Shown piece by piece: positions 18,445-30,582 of a DNA stretch of 64,000 nt (positions are counted from its first letter, which is position 1; each line of letters opens with the position of its first letter). Where the stretch lies: the NCBI GenBank assembly GCA_048939625.1, contig JBHLPH010000004.1, positions 57,473 through 121,472 on the forward strand, in the 5' to 3' direction. The notes beneath the pieces were generated by a model. That model had not been told where the DNA came from and did no database searches. It worked only from the letters and a program-made list of their open reading frames with translations. The stretch is from Promethearchaeota archaeon. GTDB lineage: Archaea; Asgardarchaeota; Hermodarchaeia; Hermodarchaeales; Hermodarchaeaceae. The position numbers and the translations under genes are program-made.

Positions 18445-19674
18445 ATGGATTTTGAGTTTTCACAGGATGAACAACTTTTCCGAGATACTGTCCGGGACTT
18501 TGCCCAAAAAGAAATCCGTCCTCATACACGGGAAATGGATGAAACGGGCACACTACCCAAGGGCCTCGTCAAAAAGATGGCGGATCTTGGCCTCCTGGGT
18601 ATCACAATTCCAGAAAAATACGGTGGACCTGGTGGAAACTTCATGTTAGCCTGTATTGCCGCTGAGGAACTCGCACGGGGGGATTTAAGCATCGCGATCC
18701 CAGTCTTTTATCTCGTCGAAGCAAGCTGGGCCTGTGTCTTTGCCCGCCACGGTACCGAAGAGGCTAAGCAAGAAATTCTTCCCAAAGTTGCCAAAGGAGA
18801 ATATTTCTTTGGCATAGCCACGACTGAACCCGGTGGAGGGAGTGATATTGTAGGTGCCACCAAAACCACCATTGCTGAAAATGAGGACAAATACGTCGTA
18901 AACGGTGAGAAGGTCTACATCAGTGGAGTTCGCGAATCCACCACCGAAATGCAAGGCCGCTACTTCACTACCGGATACCTCGACAAGCAAGCGTCTCCGA
19001 AGCATCGTGGTATTGCTGCCTTCATCTTACCCGTCGAAAAAGATACCCCCGGTCTCACCCCCACCCTCTTCGAGGATTGGGGCCGGATGGGCATCAGCAC
19101 TGGTGGCTTTGCCATGGACAATGTTGAGATTCCTAAGCATTGGCTAATCGGCGAACCCAACAAGGGATTCGTGTACGCTATGGAAGGCTTCTCCGCGGCC
19201 CGTGTCATCATCGGCGCCACCTGTATTGGTGCCGCCCTCGAAGGACTGGAAATCGGTATGAACTATGTTCGCCAACGCAAAGCCTTCGGCAAAGAACTCG
19301 GTAAATACGAAGGCATCAGCTTCCCCCTCGCCGAATGGTACAGCAAACTCATGGGCGACCGCCTCGTCATGTACAAAGCTGCCTGGCTCATGGACCAAGT
19401 CTATGCCGGCAACACCAAATACAACCACTTCGACGTCGCCCTCTGGACCGCCATGGCCAAACTCCGTGCCCCTATCGACGCCTTCGCAATCCTTAACGAA
19501 GTCGCTGACTGGCACGGCGCATTCGCATACACAAAGGAATCTGAGTTGGATCTGGGCATTCGCGGTGTCCGTAGCTACTCGATTGGCGCTGAAGGCGGCA
19601 TGAATATCATGCGGCTCATTATCGGTCGTGAGCTGCTTGGAAAAGAGTTTGTGCCCTACGATCGTCCGGAATAG
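18445..19674 (+). CDS. Acyl-CoA dehydrogenase
   Basis: GLLGITIPEKYGG, TEPGGGSD, NGEKVYIS, RKAFGK, IGAEGG. Confidence 0.95.
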   Translation: MDFEFSQDEQLFRDTVRDFAQKEIRPHTREMDETGTLPKGLVKKMADLGLLGITIPEKYGGPGGNFMLACIAAEELARGDLSIAIPVFYLVEASWACVFARHGTEEAKQEILPKVAKGEYFFGIATTEPGGGSDIVGATKTTIAENEDKYVVNGEKVYISGVRESTTEMQGRYFTTGYLDKQASPKHRGIAAFILPVEKDTPGLTPTLFEDWGRMGISTGGFAMDNVEIPKHWLIGEPNKGFVYAMEGFSAARVIIGATCIGAALEGLEIGMNYVRQRKAFGKELGKYEGISFPLAEWYSKLMGDRLVMYKAAWLMDQVYAGNTKYNHFDVALWTAMAKLRAPIDAFAILNEVADWHGAFAYTKESELDLGIRGVRSYSIGAEGGMNIMRLIIGRELLGKEFVPYDRPE

Positions 19675-19889
19675 GATTTAGTGAGTGCTGTTTTTGCACT
19701 CCTGCATATCCTCTTGAATGAAAGCCTGAGAAGAGAGTGCCACTGGTTAGTAATATTTCTAAAGGCATTCGGTCGGCTAACAACCTTAATTGATTATTAT
19801 GTAGTGTTGGTCTAATTACTTTACATTTGTCAAAATAACCTAACACTTATTTATTACAAGAGCTGGAGTAGTTCACGGAGGGATGAACA

Positions 19890-20078
19890 ATAGGTTGGCC
19901 AACTTGGACAAATCCGACAACCATTGATGGACCCAGCCAATTCCAGCTTTGGAGTTTGTGGTACTTCGATATTATCGTAATACTGCTCCTTGCGATCCTC
20001 GCCGTTGAAAGTTATCGAGCTTGGAAATGCTTTGAAGCTTGTAAAAGACTAGCGAAAGAGAAAGACAAGAAAGAGTAA
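19890..20078 (+). CDS. Putative single-TM leader peptide A (62 aa from ATA; alternative TTG at 19956)
   Basis: (I)GWPTWTNPTTIDGPSQFQLWSLWYFDIIVILLLAILAVESYRAWKCFEACKRLAKEKDKKE; GGAGGG 7 nt upstream; similar to 24301-24429. Confidence 0.6.
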   Translation: MGWPTWTNPTTIDGPSQFQLWSLWYFDIIVILLLAILAVESYRAWKCFEACKRLAKEKDKKE

Positions 20079-20133
20079 AGACTAGTACAATAATCACCTC
20101 AGAGATTCAAACGAACAGCGATTTTCGATTACG

Positions 20134-20153
20134 CCCTCCAGCTCCCTTTTTTT
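20134..20153 (+). terminator. Anti-SD pyrimidine tract plus T7 terminator/attenuator before the S8 protease
   Basis: CCCTCCAGCTCCC followed by TTTTTTT (20147-20153). Confidence 0.55.
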
Positions 20154-20181
20154 CAGAAGAGAGGGAAGGTGCAACCTGGTA

Positions 20182-21867
20182 ATGAAAAAAACAATCACTC
20201 GTGCAAATAAGGTTCATGTAATTCTCACCCTAAAATCTAAAAGTGGAAAATCTCTGTTTAAAAAGAAAAAACTCCTTCATGAAGATTTCAAAGATTATGA
20301 TCCTCACCCTGATTCAATGAATGCAGTGATTACCTGGCTCAAAAAAGATGATTGCAAGATTACAGCAAAGGGTTATTTTAGCCTAGCTTTCACTGCGTCA
20401 AAATCCTTTGTCGATAAATACTTTGACGGAGGAAAAGCAATTCCCGTCGAGTTGAAAGAACATGTGGAAAAGAGTGTATTGTCACCAATTTGGAAACTGA
20501 GAAACGCAGAACCAACTCCCCCTAGACTTGATCCTGGTGAACTTTCAGTACCGTCCCCAATCGCTGAACTGGTAAATGCAGATAGTAAACATAGAGAAGG
20601 AATTGTTGGAAGAGGAGTGCATGTTGTTGTAGTTGATACAGGCTTTTGGACTCTTAATCACCCCCAATTTCATCCTTATTATAATGCCACACTTAAGGAT
20701 CAAGTGCGGAAGCAAATTGACGTTATACCTTTGAGAACCGAGTGGGACAAAGCAGAAGACTGGCTTTCTCATGGAACAGCTCTCTGTTCTACACTATTTG
20801 CGGTTGCGCCAGGGATTAGACTCACCATGATTAAGACAGCAAGTGTTTCAAGTGTTGTTCCAGCAACAGGAGAACCCATTGATAGCGAGGGGCCGTATAT
20901 TGTTGAGGGGATTTTGAAAGCAATTCAGTTGGAAGACCAGGCGGATATTCTGTTGGTTTGTGCAGGACCAAATGAGAAGGATGTGGATAGGAATGGAGAG
21001 GAGAGAAGAATAGTGGAGCTTGCTTTAATCACACTAATTAATCGAGGAGTTGTTGTTATCTTTCCATCTGGAAATTATGTATGGGAAACCGAGGATGGTC
21101 AAAGAATCGATGAAGGTGTTGTCGTGTGGCCTTCAACTCATCCAGATGTAATTTCTGTTGGTGGGGCTTCTCCCCCAGGAATAGCTGGTCCAGCTAATAA
21201 AGGGTGGTTTGCTTCACCTGTTGCATCGAGTGGTGAATCAGTGTTATACCCTCCTCGCCATGTCCCAGATATTTGCGGCTTGTGTGGAAATCTCATACGA
21301 GTAGCTGTACCAAATGGCCAAGGTGGCACACTTCAGGTTGGTGTAATGAAACCATTCATTGCAGTTCCAGTTCAGTATCAAAGTACTGATGATTTAATGC
21401 GGGTTCGTGATGCAACAGCCTTACCTCCTGTACTTGCTGACGGTTGGACTGTTAGTAACGGAACATCGCTTGCGGCGCCAATGGTTGCTGGCGTCGTTGC
21501 TTTAATGCTGCAAATCATTAATGACGCAGTTGGGTCATTACCGAGTACTTTTCGATCCAGTTATCGAACCCTTTTATCAAGATCTGATAAAAATAAATTA
21601 TCTTGGAACTCGGTTCGGGCATTCTTTCCAGGACTTATAAAGAAGATATTACAGAAGACTGCATATGATGTTAAAGAGGGAATAAGTGCTAATCTTGAAG
21701 CAGCTAGGCAAAATGAAGATCCTGCAACCGGTGTAGGACTCGTTGATGCTAAAAAGGCTTGTAATTTCCTTTCTGTAAATAGTATTTTGAATTTATTAAG
21801 GACTGATCCAACAATAATGCACCCCTATTTAGGAAGTTTTAGGCTTCCTGATGATTTCTTCCACTGA
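20182..21867 (+). CDS. S8 subtilisin-like serine protease with N-terminal prodomain, no obvious signal peptide
   Basis: VVVVDTG (Asp), HGT (His), SGN (oxyanion Asn), GTSLAAPMVAG (Ser). Confidence 0.92.
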   Translation: MKKTITRANKVHVILTLKSKSGKSLFKKKKLLHEDFKDYDPHPDSMNAVITWLKKDDCKITAKGYFSLAFTASKSFVDKYFDGGKAIPVELKEHVEKSVLSPIWKLRNAEPTPPRLDPGELSVPSPIAELVNADSKHREGIVGRGVHVVVVDTGFWTLNHPQFHPYYNATLKDQVRKQIDVIPLRTEWDKAEDWLSHGTALCSTLFAVAPGIRLTMIKTASVSSVVPATGEPIDSEGPYIVEGILKAIQLEDQADILLVCAGPNEKDVDRNGEERRIVELALITLINRGVVVIFPSGNYVWETEDGQRIDEGVVVWPSTHPDVISVGGASPPGIAGPANKGWFASPVASSGESVLYPPRHVPDICGLCGNLIRVAVPNGQGGTLQVGVMKPFIAVPVQYQSTDDLMRVRDATALPPVLADGWTVSNGTSLAAPMVAGVVALMLQIINDAVGSLPSTFRSSYRTLLSRSDKNKLSWNSVRAFFPGLIKKILQKTAYDVKEGISANLEAARQNEDPATGVGLVDAKKACNFLSVNSILNLLRTDPTIMHPYLGSFRLPDDFFH

Positions 21868-22095
21868 AGAACCTAAGCTACAATAGAACAATGGTACTTC
21901 TAGTGACGACCATACTTCAATAGGAAAGGCATTTCCTCCTTAGTCAGATTTCGGTTTTGTCGTATCAATATCTTTTGATGGAATTATTAGGTCGTTTTTC
22001 GTGGGAAAATTATCTTGGTTAAAGTCTAAAAGAATTGATGAGCAGGTGAGTAAACTTGATAATCCAGAAAAAGCCCTTAATTACAGGAGAAGGCT

Positions 22096-23067
22096 ATGGA
22101 CCTCATCGACAAACAAATTATTTTCGAGCTTCTGATTAGTTATCGCGCCTCGTACCAAGCTATCGCAGAAAAACTCAATTTATCTGTCAATGCTGTTAAA
22201 AAACGATTTGAGAAGTTAAAAAATGTTGGGATAATCCGCGGTGGAGTTTTAGTTCCAATGCCAGTGATGAAAGGAACTGAAGATTGGCTGGCATTATTAC
22301 GAATGGATGAAGCTACAGCTTCAGATGACAGTCTAGAAAAAATTGGGTCTCACGTACTAGTTCAATCGGGAAGCCTTCTGACAGATGGAAGCATCCTCTG
22401 TTTCGGGTTCTATGGCGGAGCACAAGATCTTCAGGAGATAGGGGCTTTTCTCCGCCAAGTTCAAGGTGTCAAATCTGTGGAATTTCATACAATTCTAGCA
22501 CCACAAGGAAAGAAGACTGATTTGGCGAAGAACGATGTAAAGGTACTCCGATGTCTTCGGGAAGCCCCCCGAATCCCGATTAGCAAAATTACTGAAAAAA
22601 CAGGTATAAATTCAAGACGAGTTCGGAATATTCTGCAAAAATTAATTGGAGAAAACGGAGTCGAACCGATCTATTATATTAATTGGAAATCTCAAGGAAA
22701 AACTCATCCGAATGATGTTAGTTTCTTAGTGAGAGTTCATTGGAACCTAAATGCGGGTGGTTATACTGCCTTTATGATTCAGATTCGACACAAGGAAGGT
22801 GTGGAAGAAAGGAAAAAAATTACTGATATTCTGACAGATAATTATTCTTTCGAGTTTTGGTATGCCTATGCTTCTGCATTTGAGCCCGTGATATTCTGTG
22901 TGTTCTTGGTTGAGCACATGAGGGATTCGATAGAAATTGTAAAAACAGTAGAGCAGATTCCTCAAGCAGTTGAGGTGTATCCGATTTTCGGGTATCCTAC
23001 GAAGGTTTTTCGTAGTCAGGTTGATGATTATTTTGAAGGAATTTTCGAGAATATTGATCAGTACTGA
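22096..23067 (+). CDS. Tandem (double) Lrp/AsnC-type transcriptional regulator, paralog 1
   Basis: N-terminal AsnC HTH (DKQII.EL...RASYQAIAEKLNLSVNAVKKR) and second HTH (DVKVLRCLREAPRIPISKI). Confidence 0.85.
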   Translation: MDLIDKQIIFELLISYRASYQAIAEKLNLSVNAVKKRFEKLKNVGIIRGGVLVPMPVMKGTEDWLALLRMDEATASDDSLEKIGSHVLVQSGSLLTDGSILCFGFYGGAQDLQEIGAFLRQVQGVKSVEFHTILAPQGKKTDLAKNDVKVLRCLREAPRIPISKITEKTGINSRRVRNILQKLIGENGVEPIYYINWKSQGKTHPNDVSFLVRVHWNLNAGGYTAFMIQIRHKEGVEERKKITDILTDNYSFEFWYAYASAFEPVIFCVFLVEHMRDSIEIVKTVEQIPQAVEVYPIFGYPTKVFRSQVDDYFEGIFENIDQY

Positions 23068-23163
23068 TGTATTTTGGAGTGATAATTGTAATTTCCGAAT
23101 ATGAAGTGCCTAGTAATTAGAGCTCTGTCCCTGGCTTCAAGGTATATGGGGTTTACAATTGTG

Positions 23164-23253
23164 TAAGAGGAAAGCCGGGCCCTGGTTGTCCACCGGTGCC
23201 CCAGAGGCCCGACACGCCGTTTGTCGAACCTCAGGTCCGGTTTCCACCCATCC
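23164..23253 (-). other. Structured 3' RNA of peptide unit U1
   Basis: Arms GCCGGGCCCTGG (23174-23185) and CCAGAGGCCCGAC (23201-23213), then a pyrimidine tract on the minus strand. Confidence 0.55.
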
Positions 23254-23397
23254 TCAGCGAATCATAAGCGGAAGTGCCTGTTCGAGACGTGGACCTGCTC
23301 GGGGATTGGTTCGACATCCAGCAAATAATCGCTCTGCACAGGTCATGCGAGCGACGTGAGCGTGATGATGAAGTTTCCGAGCGGTTTTCTTCTTCAT
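23254..23397 (-). CDS. Basic peptide U1 (47 aa), novel family
   Basis: MKKKTARKLHHHAHVARMTCAERLFAGCRTNPRAGPRLEQALPLMIR; GGAGGT SD; homologous to U2 and U3. Confidence 0.8.
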   Translation of the reverse strand: MKKKTARKLHHHAHVARMTCAERLFAGCRTNPRAGPRLEQALPLMIR

Positions 23398-23446
23398 GTT
23401 GCGTGTACCTCCAAGGTTGTGTTTAACGAAACAGGGATACGGAAAA

Positions 23447-23534
23447 TTAGATATGAATCGATGGGAGCCAATGAGTGCAAGAACAAGCAAAATGAGCAGT
23501 ATTAATGCCTCATTTTGCACAATGTAGTGTAAAG
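23447..23534 (-). promoter_or_regulatory. Shared promoter/operator, copy 1
   Basis: TCGATGGGAGC 23458, AGTGCAAGA 23474, TTTTGCAC-N6-GTGTAAAG 23513-23534. Confidence 0.75.
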
Positions 23535-23581
23535 TTCGAAAAATACTGCTTCAGAATATGAATAGAGGTATCTTGTAGTTG

Positions 23582-23926
23582 TTAGATCCAGCCACGGAAT
23601 TTGGCCAGAATCCACAGAATAGCAAAAGGAGCGATAACCATAAGTTCAATTTGTAAAACAATAATGAAATCCCCTACAGAGGTAGAACCATAGATACTAG
23701 AAGTGGCCACCCCACAGAAGAACGCATTATACCAAACGAAACACATATCAACTATTGTGAAAAGCGCGGCGAGTGTTCCACCCAGATCAAAAAGCCGACA
23801 CCCTTTATTCTTCAGGATACTGAAAATTTGATAAAGTCTTAAGCGAGAATCCTGTGCTTTTCGGGTCGCATTCTGTAAAGTAACAGGTTTGGAACCATTT
23901 GGTTTCTGATTATTAGGGAAAGCCAT
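23582..23926 (-). CDS. Small membrane protein U4 (114 aa, two C-terminal hydrophobic segments)
   Basis: MAFPNNQKP...; GGAG SD; start region identical over 14 nt to U2; shared promoter upstream (ORF track starts at 23983). Confidence 0.7.
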   Translation of the reverse strand: MAFPNNQKPNGSKPVTLQNATRKAQDSRLRLYQIFSILKNKGCRLFDLGGTLAALFTIVDMCFVWYNAFFCGVATSSIYGSTSVGDFIIVLQIELMVIAPFAILWILAKFRGWI

Positions 23927-24000
23927 TTTTGTTCTCCATCCAATTTCGTTGAATTCACCCGAAGACCCGTTCGGGCGTTTCATGCCATTAAAGGTTGATT

Positions 24001-24089
24001 TTACATATCAATCAATGGGAATTAAATCATGCAAAAAAATCGAAGCTACTTAAGGAAAAACTCCTTTTTTTGCGATAGGGGGTTCAAAA
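24001..24089 (-). promoter_or_regulatory. Shared promoter/operator, copy 4
   Basis: TCAATGGGAAT 24012, CATGCAAAA 24028, TTTTGCGA-N6-GTTCAAAA 24068-24089. Confidence 0.65.
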
Positions 24090-24300
24090 AAAGAATCTAT
24101 CTGCTATTAATTTCCATTTGATTAATCTAAGAGGTTCAAAAGTACTAACCATCTTCTTTTTGGAGCAGTTTAATAAAATGTGAATACTGCTTCTTCTTTA
24201 GGCAATTGCAGGAAAAAAAGTCGCTTATCTTGAATTTCAGAATCTAATGTGTTAAGGCTTATAAGGGATTAGAGAGGTTTAGCAGTCGGAGGGTTAAACC

Positions 24301-24429
24301 CTGTCATCAACGTGGTTAAACAATCCTTGGCTGATTGTTCAAGACCCCGGATTTCCCATAATGACGACTATCCTGATTCTCGTGATTATTATCTTAATCA
24401 TTGAAATCTATAAAGTCAGGAAGGATTAG
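24301..24429 (+). CDS. Putative single-TM leader peptide B (42 aa from CTG; internal ATG at 24361 gives 22 aa)
   Basis: (L)SSTWLNNPWLIVQDPGFPIMTTILILVIIILIIEIYKVRKD; GGAGGG 7 nt upstream; TATA-like CTTATAAG at 24258. Confidence 0.6.
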   Translation: MSSTWLNNPWLIVQDPGFPIMTTILILVIIILIIEIYKVRKD

Positions 24430-24471
24430 GTATTCGGGATTCTGATTCGAATTAGTCATATAGGGAACCAC

Positions 24472-24506
24472 GGGAGTTTTATCAACTCCCTCTCCCTCCT
24501 TTTTTT
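24472..24506 (+). terminator. Hairpin + anti-SD tract + T7 terminator/attenuator before the gingipain
   Basis: GGGAGTT/AACTCCC stem, TCTCCCTCC, TTTTTTT (24500-24506). Confidence 0.65.
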
Positions 24507-24643
24507 CAATAGGTTCGAGGTTTTTTCAAACTAAAATTGCCTTTGAATCCAGAGAAGCGAAGATAGTGAGTTTTCCCATATGAAAATAAATAGAATAAAG
24601 ATTACCAATATCAGGATTTGAATTTAGACCTTGAGGGAGAATC

Positions 24644-27600
24644 ATGAGTAGATTTCCTTTGGGCTTAAGTTACGTATTTATTATCATTTTAATTTGCCCT
24701 TCAATCCTAATGCAACCATATTCACCATTGCTTCTTGAAGACTATCCCTATAGTACTCCGAAAGACGCGGAATTTTGTACAGAACCACTAGCTTCCGCAC
24801 ATTTATCTACCTCTAAGCGAGCTTTGCCTATTCAGGGTGGTTCTTGGGTACAATTTCATTCTGAAGCAGAAATCGGGGGAGAGCCAGAGATAACACTTCT
24901 TTCGTCAGATACGATCCGATTAGTAGTCTTACTAGAGTGCCCAGGAATGTGGCGAGATGACATTATATTAAATCATACTGTGTATGACAGACTTGAAATC
25001 ATTTCAGCAGAGTCAACCGCCGATGTTGGTAATCCGAACATCCCTGTTCTGACAAAGATGCTAGAAGTTCCTTATGACATTGATGTTTCAGTCGAACTTC
25101 TCGATTCAGAATATCAGGATTTATCGGATTACCATATTGCACCTAGGCAAGAGTTAGTTTATCCTACTCCATCAATAACGTACCCAAGATTCTTCATTAA
25201 CACAACAGTCTATAACCAGAATTCGTTTTATCCAACCTCACTGACTTGGATTGAAGGAAGTCTAGCAGCGAATCCCATTGTAATCCGTGGCCATCGAATA
25301 ATCACATTGCACTTAGCTCCACTCCAATTTAACCCAGATAGACATATTTGTCGAGTATTTTCAAAGATCAAAGTGGCTGTACGATTTGCCCGACCAGCAG
25401 CAATTGAACCAATAAGTTCTCGGCTTCAGAGCTCGGCTTTTGAGGGAATATTAGAGAATTATCTTCTGAATTATCCTCATGGATTTTACAGCGGACTCTC
25501 AACATTACAGAATACTACTCCTTGGATTCCTCCGATTTGGACAATTCTCCCACCGTCAAAACAGATGCCCACGAGCGGATGCGAGTATCTTATTATTTCC
25601 CATGATGATTTTGTCGAGAAAGTTAGACCATTAGCAAACTGGAAGATTCAGAAAGGCATAACGACAAAACTCATTTCGATTACTGGGGTTTTTAATGAGT
25701 TAAACTGGGTAGTAACGTCTGATCCAGATACTATTAGGAGTGCAGTTTCAGAATACATTCAGTGGGCATACAATAGCTGGGATTTAGTACCAACTTATGC
25801 CCTCCTTGTTGGAGATGAAGCACATATTCCTCCACATTATATGACAATTCATCCACAGTATCTTACATTGAGTCCAACGGACTTAGGATACTTTCAGCTC
25901 GATGGACCCGATTATCTCCCGGAAATGCTGCATGGGCGACTTTCCGTTGACTCTGATACTCAAGCTGAAACCTTTGTCAATAAAATTCTTCAATACGAAC
26001 AGAATGGCGTAACTGATCCAACGGGTAATTTTTATAACAGAATCTGCGCTAGCGCATACTTCCAAGATAGAGATAATAATGGACAAGAAGATCCTGCATT
26101 TCGTCTAACTCAAACTGCTGAAAAGTTTCGAGAGTATGTAACCTCACGTTCGAATCCTTATGATGTGGACTATTTCTATGTTGCAGGAGCGTACAACTTG
26201 GACCCCTTTGCCATTACTCCCTCAACCTATGAAGATGGAACACCCCTTGATTCAAGTTTAGCAGGCCATGATTGGTTCCATCATTTTACACAAGCACAGA
26301 ATGTCATCGATACAATCAACCTTGGATCGTTTTTGCTATTCAATCTTGGCCATGGAGAATCGCGGAATTTTTACCGTCAATCGAATGGCACTTTTGGTCC
26401 ATTTGATGGTTGGCAGTATCCACCCTTTGTAACAGACCAGTTTCACCTGTTGACAAACGGAGACAAACTACCCGTAGTTCTGAGTTTAGATTGTAATACA
26501 GGCTGGTTTGATGAAGCCTACGATTATAGTCCAGCAAATTACGAATCCTTCTCCGAAGAGATTACCAGAAAGGCTGGCGGTGGTGCTGTTGCAGCACTTG
26601 GGGCTTCACGGCCCGTTCAGGCACCCGTGAGCGCGTTAATGCTGGAGGGAATTGCTGATGCAATTTGGGCTGATTATGATGGAAATATCGCCACAGGTGG
26701 TTTGAATAATTTGGGACAGATCATCCACTATAGCAAGATGCTAGTTATGGAACAATGGGGATATTTGGGTGAAGAATTGTGTTCTGTAAATACATTTGAA
26801 CTCTACCACCTTTTTGGAGATCCAGAGATGCCATTATGGACGCAAGAGCCTGAGGATCTGGAGGTTTATTATCCAACACATATTGGCATGGAGGGAGAGC
26901 AACGCTTTGTTGTCCAAGTGACTCGGAGCGGATTTCCTATTGGTTCAGCAAGAGTCTGTCTTCAAAAAGGCGGAGAGTTATATGCAGTGAATTTCACGGA
27001 TTCTAGAGGTTATGCGTATTTTTCAGTTAATCCCATAACAAGTGGATCTATGAATTTGACCGTGACAGCTAAGAACCATCTTCCATATACCACAGTAATT
27101 TTCGTTACCAGTGGTGGAGGAGTTCAGTTAAGTCGAGCCTCTGGGGCTGGAGAAACCACGATTACTATCACTGGAACAAAATTTACAAGTGCTAATATGG
27201 TCCATCTCTTCATAGGAAACCCATGGGAAGAAGAGGGAAGTGGTCAGGTACCTGTGGATGGGAGAGTTGAATTCACCTATACAATTCCAAGTGAACAAAC
27301 AGAACCACTGAATTTTTGGCTCCGTGAAATCCAAGTTATAAGTATTGATCCTCCGATTATTTTCACAGTCCGTGCCGGCGTTTCCTATTACTCACCGTAT
27401 TTTGAAGCTCCAGATTTGTATACCTATTGTCAATGGAATGAAGAAACATGGCATTTGAATCCTAAAGGATCATCTGCCAATGAGAATCCCTGTTGGGATA
27501 ATCCTTCGATAGAGGTGAAAGATGATCAGGGAAATGTAGTTACATCAGGAAACTTACAAATTGGTTCTATCTATACTATTCATGCTGATATACACAACGC

Positions 27601-28243
27601 AGGACCAATTCATGCAAATAACGTCAAAGTGTTCTTCAACTGGTCTAGATGGGGAATTGGCCAAGTGACTTGGCATGCGATAGGAAATGACACAATTGAT
27701 GTCCTGCCTTGGGGTCAGTCGATGGCTGTAATGGTCTTTGTGCCAACTGTTGAAGACATGATTTGTATTCGAGTAGCAGTATCACATCCTGAAGATAGCA
27801 ATCCTTACAATGATTGGGGTGTTGAAAACACCTTAGCACTCTTCACTCCGGACCGCATCGGCATCGAATTGCCAGTCTTCAACCCAACTTCCAGAGAAAG
27901 CCATATGTTTATCCAATTGACTCAAGATAACATATTAGGTGCTTTGTGGACAGCATCAGTTGATCATATTTCAGATTCACAACTAGGACCAAGTGAATCA
28001 ACTAATATCATAATCAGTTTCGTTATCCCAGACGATGTTAGAGAAGGTGATATGCACAATTTCACAATAAACGCCTTTATCGAACAATATATCACAGGGG
28101 GAGTCAGTATTTGTCTAACGAAAAGACCGCCTCAATTAGTGATACCATGGCACCTAATCCTCCCGCTAATTGTTTTAGTGATTATCAGTATTATCATCGT
28201 ATTCGTTTTTAAGAAGCGCTTTCGAGAAAGTGATGAAAATTAG
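24644..28243 (+). CDS. C25 (gingipain) family cysteine peptidase, secreted, C-terminally membrane-anchored
   Basis: Signal-like N-terminus; propeptide (G.P..P); EYLII, YALLVGD, GRL, LGHG (His), SLDCNTG (Cys), LFGDP; Ig/CARDB-like domains; TM + KKR. Confidence 0.9.
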   Translation: MSRFPLGLSYVFIIILICPSILMQPYSPLLLEDYPYSTPKDAEFCTEPLASAHLSTSKRALPIQGGSWVQFHSEAEIGGEPEITLLSSDTIRLVVLLECPGMWRDDIILNHTVYDRLEIISAESTADVGNPNIPVLTKMLEVPYDIDVSVELLDSEYQDLSDYHIAPRQELVYPTPSITYPRFFINTTVYNQNSFYPTSLTWIEGSLAANPIVIRGHRIITLHLAPLQFNPDRHICRVFSKIKVAVRFARPAAIEPISSRLQSSAFEGILENYLLNYPHGFYSGLSTLQNTTPWIPPIWTILPPSKQMPTSGCEYLIISHDDFVEKVRPLANWKIQKGITTKLISITGVFNELNWVVTSDPDTIRSAVSEYIQWAYNSWDLVPTYALLVGDEAHIPPHYMTIHPQYLTLSPTDLGYFQLDGPDYLPEMLHGRLSVDSDTQAETFVNKILQYEQNGVTDPTGNFYNRICASAYFQDRDNNGQEDPAFRLTQTAEKFREYVTSRSNPYDVDYFYVAGAYNLDPFAITPSTYEDGTPLDSSLAGHDWFHHFTQAQNVIDTINLGSFLLFNLGHGESRNFYRQSNGTFGPFDGWQYPPFVTDQFHLLTNGDKLPVVLSLDCNTGWFDEAYDYSPANYESFSEEITRKAGGGAVAALGASRPVQAPVSALMLEGIADAIWADYDGNIATGGLNNLGQIIHYSKMLVMEQWGYLGEELCSVNTFELYHLFGDPEMPLWTQEPEDLEVYYPTHIGMEGEQRFVVQVTRSGFPIGSARVCLQKGGELYAVNFTDSRGYAYFSVNPITSGSMNLTVTAKNHLPYTTVIFVTSGGGVQLSRASGAGETTITITGTKFTSANMVHLFIGNPWEEEGSGQVPVDGRVEFTYTIPSEQTEPLNFWLREIQVISIDPPIIFTVRAGVSYYSPYFEAPDLYTYCQWNEETWHLNPKGSSANENPCWDNPSIEVKDDQGNVVTSGNLQIGSIYTIHADIHNAGPIHANNVKVFFNWSRWGIGQVTWHAIGNDTIDVLPWGQSMAVMVFVPTVEDMICIRVAVSHPEDSNPYNDWGVENTLALFTPDRIGIELPVFNPTSRESHMFIQLTQDNILGALWTASVDHISDSQLGPSESTNIIISFVIPDDVREGDMHNFTINAFIEQYITGGVSICLTKRPPQLVIPWHLILPLIVLVIISIIIVFVFKKRFRESDEN

Positions 28244-28311
28244 GATTTTTCAATAAGTGGAAAGAAAACAAATGTGCCATACTCTATTTATAGTCGTGAA
28301 GACCACAGAGT

Positions 28312-28327
28312 GTGGATTCGGACCTTT
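28312..28327 (+). promoter_or_regulatory. 16-nt element GTGGATTCGGACCTTT upstream of Lrp paralog 2
   Basis: Identical copy at 29510-29525; both lie 25 nt after a TTTAT box. Confidence 0.65.
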
Positions 28328-28409
28328 AGGGCGTTCTACAAGCAGAATGGAGTAAATTAGTGATTTAAGTTCTCCATATGACCTCAACATATACCTTAAC
28401 GTGATTGTT

Positions 28410-29378
28410 ATGGATCTGGTTGACAAGAACATTGTGTTCGAGCTTTCCGTCAATTATCGTGCTTCATATCAGACGATTGCCAAGAAACTAAATCTTTCTG
28501 TGAATGCTGTCAAGAAACGTATTGAGAAACTAAAGGAGAGTGGAATAATTCGGGGAGGTTTATTACTTCCAATGAATGCAATGTTGGGGATGGAAGATTG
28601 GATAGCCATTTTGCATACTAAAAACCCCACCCCTTCAAGTAATTTTCTTGACACATTGGGAAAACATCCATTGATGACTGCCGCAAGTATTCTTACAGAT
28701 GGAAGTATTTTGTGCCATGGGAGTTACTCAGGAGCATATGGTCTTCGAGATATTGGATCGTTTTTACGGCAGATACCTGAAGTGGACTCTGTAGATTTTC
28801 ATACACTTCTCTCTGTGCCAGGGAAACGTTGTGAATTATCAACTGCTGACTTGAAAGTCCTGAGATGTCTCTACGAAGAGCCTCGAATTTCTATTATAGA
28901 TATTTCTAAAAAAACTGGCCTTAGTCCTCGCCGGATTCGAATGAGCATACACGAATTAATAGGTGAAAACGGCTCCGAACCGGCTCTATACTTGGAGTGG
29001 GAGCCGAGGGGTGGTTCTCGTCCTGAAGAGGTTAGTTTTAAGGTTTCAATTCACTGGGATTTGAATGCTGGTGGATATACGGCATTCATTATGATGATTC
29101 GACACGAAGAGGGGAGTGTGTCACAGTCTAAGATTGTTAGAATGTTAAAAGAACAGTATCCAATGGATTTTTGGTATGCATATGCCTCGGCGTTTGAGCC
29201 TGTGATTTTTTGTATTTTTGTCGTTGAACACTTACGAGACGCTACAAACATTGCAAATACGATTCGGAAAATCCCTGAAGCGATTACTGCAAATACGATT
29301 TTTGGTTATCCAACTAAACGATATCGAAGTCCTATTGATGACTATTTTGAAGAACTTTTCAAGCAGATCGACGACTAA
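28410..29378 (+). CDS. Tandem Lrp/AsnC-type regulator, paralog 2
   Basis: Same two-HTH architecture; shared LTDGSILC, LNAGG, FWYAYASAFEPVIF. Confidence 0.87.
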   Translation: MDLVDKNIVFELSVNYRASYQTIAKKLNLSVNAVKKRIEKLKESGIIRGGLLLPMNAMLGMEDWIAILHTKNPTPSSNFLDTLGKHPLMTAASILTDGSILCHGSYSGAYGLRDIGSFLRQIPEVDSVDFHTLLSVPGKRCELSTADLKVLRCLYEEPRISIIDISKKTGLSPRRIRMSIHELIGENGSEPALYLEWEPRGGSRPEEVSFKVSIHWDLNAGGYTAFIMMIRHEEGSVSQSKIVRMLKEQYPMDFWYAYASAFEPVIFCIFVVEHLRDATNIANTIRKIPEAITANTIFGYPTKRYRSPIDDYFEELFKQIDD

Positions 29379-29509
29379 TTAGGGTTTTCACAACCTAATC
29401 GCTTTCCCTTCATTTTGCTTTACGTCTAATTTGATACTGATGTCATCAGTAGTTAGGGGGTCCTTTTAGGTGAGCCGAACAAATTTTATGCTTTAAAATA
29501 GTGGTGTAA

Positions 29510-29525
29510 GTGGATTCGGACCTTT
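29510..29525 (+). promoter_or_regulatory. 16-nt element GTGGATTCGGACCTTT upstream of Lrp paralog 3
   Basis: Identical to 28312-28327. Confidence 0.65.
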
Positions 29526-29610
29526 GAGACAGCATTGGGTGGTTTTGTTAAGACAATACAGTCTTCAAGCTACTATCCTGCTAGCTGCAAAAAGGCATTA
29601 AGTGGTGGCA

Positions 29611-30582
29611 ATGGACGCCGTGGACAAGAACATCATTTTCGAGCTATCGACAAACTATCGTGCTTCATATCAGGCTATTGCTAAGAAAATGGATCTTTCA
29701 GTGAATGCTGTTAAGAAGCGAATTGAGAAACTCAAAGAAAGTGGAGTAATTCGGGGTGGGTTATTACTTCCTATGAGGGCAATGTTGGAGATGGATGATT
29801 GGGTTGCCTTATTACGCACTGAAGATCCAATTCCTTCTGATCAGTTTCTTGATGTTATTGGGGCACATCGGTTAGTGGGATCTGCGAGTATTCTTACGGA
29901 TGGTAGTATTTTGTGTTTTGGGTGGTACCCTGGCTCTTCAGGGCTTGAGGAAATTGGTACATTCTTGCGTTCAACTCCTGGTGTTGAGTCGGTGGAATTT
30001 CATACGATTCTTGCGGATCCTGGGAAGCGCTGCGAGTTGTCTGTATCTGACGTGAAGGTGCTTCGATGTTTGCATAAAGAGCCACGGATGTCAATTAGTG
30101 ATATTTCTAATGAAACGCGCCTTACGCCCCGCCGTATTCGGAAAATCATTGATGCGTTAATTGGTGAAAATGGTTCAGAGTCCAATATCTATTTGAATCA
30201 CCCGTCCAGAGGGGGGAAGCGACCAGAAGAGGTATGCTTTCAACTAAGTTTGCGTTGGAATTTGAATGCTGGGGGACATACCGCATTTGTAATTATAATT
30301 CGCCATGAAGAGGGGGCCCAACCCCGTTCAAAGATTGTGGATATTCTCAAGGAGAACTTTCCGGTGAAATTTTGGTATGCGTATGCATCAGCCTTTGAGC
30401 CGGTGATTTTTTCTGTGTTCGTGGTTGAGCATATGCGCGAAGCCAGTGAAATCATTGAGACAATTCGTAAGACGCCTGAAGCGATTTCAGCGAATGCAAT
30501 CTATGGATATCCTTCACGAATATTTCACAGTCCCATAGATGATTACTTCGAAAAGCTCTTCAAACGACTAGAAAGAGACTAA
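29611..30582 (+). CDS. Tandem Lrp/AsnC-type regulator, paralog 3
   Basis: Close paralog of 28410-29378. Confidence 0.87.
   Translation: MDAVDKNIIFELSTNYRASYQAIAKKMDLSVNAVKKRIEKLKESGVIRGGLLLPMRAMLEMDDWVALLRTEDPIPSDQFLDVIGAHRLVGSASILTDGSILCFGWYPGSSGLEEIGTFLRSTPGVESVEFHTILADPGKRCELSVSDVKVLRCLHKEPRMSISDISNETRLTPRRIRKIIDALIGENGSESNIYLNHPSRGGKRPEEVCFQLSLRWNLNAGGHTAFVIIIRHEEGAQPRSKIVDILKENFPVKFWYAYASAFEPVIFSVFVVEHMREASEIIETIRKTPEAISANAIYGYPSRIFHSPIDDYFEKLFKRLERD

Follow-up and report, generated by a model that had tools for sequence, protein, structure and literature searches.

A membrane micro-gene with a candidate AUA start and complementary predicted transcript ends upstream of a subtilase gene in an Asgard archaeon

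Immediately upstream of a gene for an S8 subtilase, the DNA examined here carries a short reading frame for a membrane peptide, equipped with a TATA-like box, a Shine-Dalgarno (SD) motif and a terminal T-run. The frame opens on ATA, and its predicted RNA would begin with GGAGGG and end shortly after the complement of that hexamer, CCCTCC. The locus raises the question of whether this is a gene in its own right and, if so, whether its odd start and matching ends have to do with its own translation, with the formation or stability of its 3' end, with control of the protease behind it, or with a toxin kept silent. We refer to this gene as unit A and to a sister gene farther along as unit B. By the window we mean the whole stretch of DNA analysed, 64,000 nucleotides at G000:C53:57473-121472, G000 being a 2.3-Mb MAG of 83 contigs; positions are those of the window unless a contig or locus is named.

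A first-pass annotation of this DNA had described unit A as a single-TM peptide gene with its own promoter and a T-run end. All of the features that it listed for unit A were found in place on reading the sequence (Table 1), and homologues in three genomes together with a fixed TATA-SD spacing support a gene of this kind, presumably translated. Our main reading, to which we give about an even chance, is that of a separately transcribed membrane micro-gene with an AUA start and closed RNA ends, acting with the neighbouring protease.

Table 1. Positions of unit A, its sequence signals and its neighbours in the window
Feature	Position	Strand	Basis or remark
BRE-like AAC-AC and TATA box of the unit A micro-gene	19842-19856	+	Read in sequence
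TATA-like box of unit A, TTATTTATTA	19847-19856	+	Read in sequence
GAGCTGGAG	19860-19868		Exact reverse complement of CTCCAGCTC
GGAGGGAT, SD of unit A and predicted 5' end of the transcript	19877-19884	+	(G/A/T)GAGGG[AT] kept in 11/11 units
GGAGGG hexamer of unit A	19877-19882	+	Read in sequence
Out-of-frame ATG frame of 14 codons abutting the unit A SD	19883-19927	+	Read in sequence; no ATG here in G001
In-frame TGA bounding the unit A frame	19884-19886	+	Read in sequence
Unit A coding sequence, 62-residue membrane peptide	19890-20078	+	Candidate start AUA 19890 (ATA 19890-19892, 7 nt past GGAGGG), stop TAA 20076-20078; homologues in L010, L008 and L009
Alternative 40-residue form of unit A from the first canonical start (TTG)	19956-20078	+	ORF list
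AATCACCTC in the unit A 3' UTR, like the archaeal 16S rRNA 3' tail	20092-20100	+	Read in sequence
CCCTCC, SD complement of unit A	20134-20139	+	Predicted pairing with RNA nt 1-6, P 0.97
CTCCAGCTC	20136-20144		Exact reverse complement of GAGCTGGAG
T7 run, predicted archaeal terminator and 3' end of unit A	20147-20153	+	Read in sequence; a run of at least 5 T at the unit end
Hairpin of pyrimidine/T tract with purine tract before the protease SD	20142-20165 (about)	+	Read-through RNA only
S8 subtilase without signal peptide, conserved neighbour	20182-21867	+	Pfam PF00082, E 9e-16
Tandem-HTH Lrp/AsnC-type regulator, 323 residues, third of the conserved trio	22096-23067	+	Pfam HTH_24 and HTH_AsnC-type
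Unit B, sister micro-gene before a C25 peptidase	24288-24506	+	SD 24288, CTG 24301, ATG 24361, end of CCCTCC and T7

A peptide family in front of two kinds of protease

Translated from ATA, the unit A frame yields a product with the motif WTNP, one hydrophobic helix, the motif ESYR and a basic tail. The S8 subfamily encoded next to it was found in only four genomes among 41 relatives (G000, G001, G014 and G017), and in all three of the others (3/3) the protease orthologue has a unit A-like small frame 155-300 nt upstream. The S8-linked homologous peptides of these three other Hermodarchaeota genomes are 43-57 residues long and single-pass, and the common build has a W/P-rich N-terminus followed by a helix, then E-x-Y-R-x-W-K/R-C or one of its variants, then a basic tail. 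Comparing unit A with its G001 counterpart codon by codon, we found 6 identical codons among the first 19, along with 5 synonymous changes, which include a Ser AGC/TCA switch, and 8 non-synonymous ones; the neighbouring S8 proteases of the two genomes are only 38% identical. The synonymous changes, at such a distance between the proteases, argue that the first 19 codons are kept as protein. Unit A is a real gene whose N-terminal part is conserved at the protein level.

In a six-frame profile search of 400 Asgard genomes, the peptide turned up only where this protease is present, and the search recovered the same copies and unit B. The weaker matches were traced to proteins of about 1170 aa, within which they are generic TM segments, and were rejected as relatives. 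The G017 copy was the only match among 5.8 billion proteins (word-indexed search) and 1.84 billion representatives (exhaustive profile search), and one in four (1/4) of the S8-linked copies has entered collections that number billions of proteins. No family in Pfam, NCBIfam or PADLOC matched the peptide, a search of the ESM Atlas with it gave no meaningful match, and Rfam over 19000-25000 returned one match, at chance level. A locus search with the single S8 protease as query found nothing, and a metagenome scan with the protease alignment found only contigs identical to G014 and distant proteases lacking such a peptide. As far as these sequence collections go, the family of the unit A peptide is undescribed and confined to a few Hermodarchaeota; it is itself new, and very narrow.

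The subtilase that follows unit A carries the Asp-His-Ser triad of the subtilase fold, with D152, H197 and S429 invariant in the alignment of four orthologues, and it shows no N-terminal hydrophobic signal. Unit B is followed by a 1199-residue C25 peptidase (24644-28243) and then by two more tandem-HTH Lrp/AsnC-type regulators. In six other genomes (G003, G007, G010, G011, G012 and G013), the C25 orthologue is likewise preceded by a small gene for a W/P-rich peptide with a single or double helix. Unit A, unit B, the three S8-type copies and these six C25-type units of other genomes make up the 11 units that are compared below. The order peptide, protease, regulator is repeated in G001 and G014, where the ORFs in the regulator position encode 326 and 330 aa, and the tandem-HTH regulator takes part in the trio in three of the four S8-type genomes. 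Protease units are patchily distributed, with S8 in 4/19 and C25 in 8/19 genomes of the family, and the protease/regulator region looks like an accessory island. Two unrelated families of protease take part in such trios, which points to a membrane-linked proteolytic module as yet undescribed.

Cysteines recur in both partners. The protease has an invariant PD-[IV]-CG-[LI]-CG motif (residues ~362-369, with C365 and C368), and the tail of the peptide (20030-20050) holds a conserved cytoplasmic Cys, present as WKC in three copies and as C-x3-C in G000 and G014. A metal or thiol contact shared by the two is conceivable.

Scanning G000 for the whole architecture returned units A and B and one doubtful extra at C37:10612-10754 (minus strand), where a small TM-peptide frame comes with a TATA-like box, GAGGGAT, an ATG and an end of CCCTC and T5. 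At C3, around 80150-80400 (plus strand), the same genome has a frame for a 28-residue hydrophobic peptide with its own TATA-like box and an end of CCCTCCC and T6, and with no 5' GGAGGG. In G003 and G012, TCGATGGGAGC stands 170-190 nt upstream of the C25-type peptide promoters (L068, about 880-895; reverse strand of L067, about 920-935).

Promoter, terminator and pairing of the transcript ends

Just past the stop of the preceding acyl-CoA dehydrogenase gene (19674), the string GAGTGC-TGTTTTT-GCACTC (19676-19715) looks like the terminator hairpin of that gene; in that case the two would be transcribed separately. A motif scan of eight units placed a TATA-like box, with its centre 25-28 nt ahead of the first G in (G/A/T)GAGGG[AT], in seven of them (7/8), and an equivalent box about 26 nt before (G)GAGGGAT could be read by eye upstream of all 11. 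Ordinary SD-ATG genes of G000, 191 of which were examined, have no preferred TATA-SD distance, so the fixed spacing is, at the level of sequence, particular to the micro-gene family. With the usual archaeal spacing from TATA box to transcription start, a box about 26 nt before the SD places the 5' end of the transcript at the SD, where it should therefore begin. At the other end, 10 of the 11 units finish in T5 or longer (G010 ends TTTATTT), and termination at the T7 of unit A is predicted by the presence of such an oligo-T run. We infer that unit A is transcribed from its own promoter, starting at the first G of GGAGGG and ending in the U-run.

A CCCTC tract lies no more than 25 nt from the terminal T-run in 11/11 units, as against 123 of the 7916 runs of T5 or longer in G000 (1.55%), and the full hexamer CCCTCC is found at 0.42% of T6+ runs of that genome. 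These frequencies led us to reject CCCTCC plus a T-run as a general rule for how G000 terminates its transcripts. Nearby in the 3' UTR of unit A, AATCACCTC resembles the 3' tail of archaeal 16S rRNA, the MAG itself having no 16S gene; strings of the form AATCAC...CCCTC, similar to that of unit A, also occur in G001 and G014.

That GGAGGG and CCCTCC could pair had been pointed out in the first-pass annotation, and this complementarity turned out to be kept across the 11-unit family. In partition-function folding of the 11 predicted transcripts, RNA nt 1-6 paired with the last 34 nt in every case (P 0.6-1.0), and in unit A with a probability of about 0.97 or more. A candidate compensatory pair, the sole one, is formed by G011, with AGAGG and a CCUCU tail, and G012, with GGAGG and a CCUCC tail. 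As a whole, however, the unit A RNA is no more stable than its shuffles (z -0.47), and in RNAs deprived of their 3' 40 nt the SD is still predicted to pair, with other pyrimidine stretches (0.6-0.98), so that the energy model cannot show the 3' tract to be the mask of the SD. The long-range helix of six base pairs is a weak prediction, and the case for a fold-back lies in the conservation of the tract, not in the folding. A second pairing proposed earlier, between GAGCTGGAG and CTCCAGCTC, is not supported: GAGCTGGAG lies downstream of the TATA box and ahead of the predicted start, so it is probably not part of the RNA, no homologue has it, and one 9-nt inverted repeat in a stretch of about 335 nt does not exceed chance, the expectation being about 0.2 by our own arithmetic.

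The conserved tract has a competing explanation, which we consider unlikely but a serious candidate: the gene would be real, and CCCTCC would be only part of a signal that forms the 3' end or stabilises the RNA, its complementarity to the SD having no role in translation. CCCTCC and T6 are found after ordinary genes of G000 as well (C53:8978, C18:5139, C27:5900 and C58:74891), and the combination of CCCTCC with a T-run possibly marks a small class of terminators, an explanation that survives as a rival. The continued pairing of the SD in tail-less RNAs fits it too. The rarity of the combination in the genome, set against its presence in 11/11 units, speaks the other way. Local structure bears on both sides. 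In the six C25-type units of other genomes, the tract is paired with a copy of GGAGGG in the 3' UTR, forming a terminator-like hairpin, and a second CCUCC-like tail is present in addition; the four S8-type units, in contrast, offer the CCCTC tract no local partner, and the arms of the C25-type hairpins are copies of the SD and not arbitrary stems. A hairpin made of GGAGGG and CCCTCC suggests that its sequence matters and not just the presence of a stem, and the alternative pairings of the C25-type units may amount to a toggle. Unit B has a different local hairpin at its 3' tract.

The C25-type units with the SD-copy hairpin are located at L068:1066-1288, L069:1069-1384 and L071:1146-1358 and on the reverse strands of L067, L072 and L070; G011 shows CCCTC, GGAGGG, CCCTCC and CCTCTC in a row.

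Toxin and attenuator readings

Type I toxin mRNAs such as those of hok/sok (plasmid R1) and aapA1/IsoA1 (Helicobacter pylori) have 5' and 3' ends predicted to pair, which hides their ribosome-binding region. Unit A shares with them a short single-helix membrane peptide and a full-length mRNA whose ends pair, in its case by prediction. It has no sequence relation to them, and it differs in its archaeal promoter and oligo-U end, in the bare pairing of an SD with an anti-SD hexamer, and in its synteny with a protease.

By analogy, unit A could be an archaeal type I toxin-antitoxin locus, with a membrane toxin, an mRNA locked by 5'-3' fold-back and an undetected antisense RNA as antitoxin, a reading that we regard as quite improbable. 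As a small hydrophobic membrane peptide of 62 residues, with one helix and a charged, basic tail, the product has the build of type I toxins; the complementary RNA ends are kept, and a weak start codon would fit tight repression. The patchy distribution of the units agrees with it, as does the base composition, since GC is about 0.39-0.43 at 20001-30000, a span that takes in the protease/regulator region, compared with 0.44-0.48 elsewhere in the window. No antisense TATA-like box, however, was found in or beside the eight units scanned for one, and the searches of Pfam, NCBIfam and PADLOC placed the peptide in no described toxin family, the 1.84 billion representatives adding only the G017 copy. 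The gene is moreover single-copy and, atypically for a type I toxin, stays in strict synteny with one protease subfamily across 38% protease identity; its ectodomain motif is kept, which is unusual for such toxins too.

Just as doubtful is a leader or attenuator, in which the peptide gene and the T7 would set the level of read-through into the S8 gene and a hairpin of the T-tract with a purine tract would hide part of the protease RBS. The T7 and the protease ATG are only 28 nt apart, too close for a classic promoter to fit between them, and a 10-bp hairpin appears in both the MFE and the centroid structure of the read-through RNA. The pairing with the protease RBS region that had been proposed from the sequence stands to the extent of this 10-bp stem, but it belongs to G000 alone, with its 28-nt spacing. 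In G001, G014 and G017 the protease starts about 155-190 nt after the T-run, behind TATA-like boxes of its own, and the layout is not conserved. The peptide sequence is under protein-level selection, no alternative antiterminator was found, and T7/CAGAAG might instead supply the TATA box for a near-leaderless protease mRNA.

T7/CAGAAG (within 20147-20182) is similar to the TATA box found in the peptide promoter of G001 and lies about 26 nt before 20177. The element might serve as both the terminator of the micro-gene and the promoter of a near-leaderless protease mRNA.

Start codon and proposed action

In the systems tested to date, AUA serves very poorly as a start codon. To our knowledge no archaeal gene has been documented to start at AUA or CUG, and a search of the literature on near-cognate starts in archaea found nothing specific. 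Among the S8-type units, those of G014 and G017 open with ATG-ATG and ATG, at 10 and 6 nt after GGAGGG respectively. Neither G000 nor G001 offers an ATG, GTG or TTG ahead of the conserved WPTWT motif, and in both an ATA follows GGAGGG at exactly 7 nt. A start further upstream is ruled out in G000 by the in-frame TGA, which precedes this ATA by two codons. The spacing from SD to start is 6-10 nt in 11/11 units, and unit A, at 7 nt, has the layout of an SD-led gene (a GGAGG-type motif 5-10 nt before the start).

The first-pass annotation had taken ATA as the opening of the frame, with a 1-nt indel behind the out-of-frame ATG as the alternative, and had proposed a read check at 19883-19892. Contigs from four runs, belonging to three studies, are identical to the window over 19700-20048, with no insertion or deletion, and three of them extend to 20400; their word depths range from 7 to 32, and contigs of this kind can hide rare variants. 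G001 has no ATG in any frame at the site and keeps ATA at the same spacing, which makes an assembly error at 19883-19892 unlikely. With no indel in the contigs and the same ATA in G001, initiation at AUA 19890 is the best reading of the sequence and fits better than a 1-nt indel.

Unit B presents a similar picture. An in-frame TAA comes right after its GGAGGG, and at 7 nt stands CTG 24301, the counterpart in the alignment of the ATG in the G003 and G012 homologues; from the internal ATG at 24361 only a helix plus tail of 22 residues would be made. A genome-wide scan for near-cognate starts behind GGAGGG returned mostly sites inside genes.

We think it very improbable that unit A starts other than at AUA. 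Translation might begin at ATG 19883 and undergo a +1 shift near AAT-AGG; this ATG abuts the SD, as one does in frame in G010 and G013, and a rare-looking AGG codon is present at the site where the shift is needed, but a zero spacing between SD and ATG is unfavourable, and G001 has its ATA in the same place with no ATG to shift from. Alternatively, only the 40-residue form might be made, from TTG 19956, the first canonical start in the frame; this form lacks the WPTWTN...DGPS part and so cannot explain its conservation, leaving that of the 22 upstream codons unaccounted for. Scarcely credible is a decaying gene, in which the frames would be relics whose start codon, once ATG, has been lost, to ATA in unit A and to CTG in unit B: both units do lack a canonical start at the aligned position, but the frames are intact, the ATA is common to G001 despite the divergence of the proteases and with synonymous change in the intervening codons, and the promoter, SD and 3' tract are all retained.

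Returning to the micro-gene with an AUA start and closed RNA ends, we propose that its action would run as follows. The RNA would extend from the first G of GGAGGG to the U-run. Translation would start at AUA, 7 nt behind the SD, which by itself should give a low output. Once the RNA is finished, GGAGGG would close with CCCUCC, so that the ends are protected and the SD is hidden, and the peptide would be made sparingly, mainly during RNA synthesis or after 3' trimming. The protein would sit with its N-terminus outside and its C-terminus inside, and its predicted layout runs from a W/P-rich ectodomain (WPTWTN...DGPS) through one helix and a juxtamembrane E-x-Y-R-x-W-K-C motif to the basic tail. 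The family of unit A is always found directly upstream of one subfamily of S8 subtilases, probably cytoplasmic, and the sister family that includes unit B before C25 peptidases. From this adjacency, the peptide may be a membrane tether, a modulator or a substrate of the neighbouring protease and not a free-standing toxin.

A bolder form of the proposal, which we hold to be rather unlikely, would make unit A a hok-style 'locked' messenger, the first in archaea: an SD-first, anti-SD-last mRNA with a near-cognate AUA (or CUG) start that doses a membrane partner or conditional toxin of protease-regulator modules, with near-cognate initiation conserved in Asgard genes.

Several described systems share single aspects of this scheme. 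In reporters of Haloferax volcanii, the interplay of 5' UTR and 3' UTR means that both transcript ends together decide translation; those mRNAs differ from unit A in having no defined SD/anti-SD end pairing and in not being micro-genes. Near-cognate starts keep expression low in the case of the AUU of bacterial infC and of CUG and AUA starts in eukaryotes. Units A and B have in common with these a conserved codon other than AUG, GUG or UUG at a normal SD distance (AUA in two genomes, CUG in unit B), whereas no autoregulatory loop is known for them. Several small membrane proteins of bacteria are modulators of a larger partner (MgrB-PhoQ, MgtS-MgtA and AcrZ-AcrB); they are single-pass, of ~30-60 residues and tied in their role to one partner, and this is a candidate likeness for unit A, whose possible partner differs in being a soluble subtilase encoded next door. 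Gram-positive quorum sensing, lastly, uses peptide-protease-regulator cassettes (AgrD-AgrB, RRNPP), which resemble the unit A trio of small peptide, protease and DNA-binding regulator; unit A differs from them in its protein families and in having a stable-looking membrane anchor with no recognisable motif for export or processing.

Asgard micro-proteins remain almost unexplored, and unit A escapes gene callers because it has no canonical start. The main points of interest are the candidate start at conserved AUA (and CUG) codons, found here in an Asgard archaeon, and the messenger that would place the SD first and the anti-SD last. Should both the AUA start and the SD/anti-SD pairing of the ends prove real, the locus would offer a compact, testable case of start-codon choice and of control of translation by transcript ends in the closest prokaryotic relatives of eukaryotes. 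If the 'locked' messenger were true, near-cognate initiation, a eukaryote-like trait, would be a conserved feature of Asgard genes.
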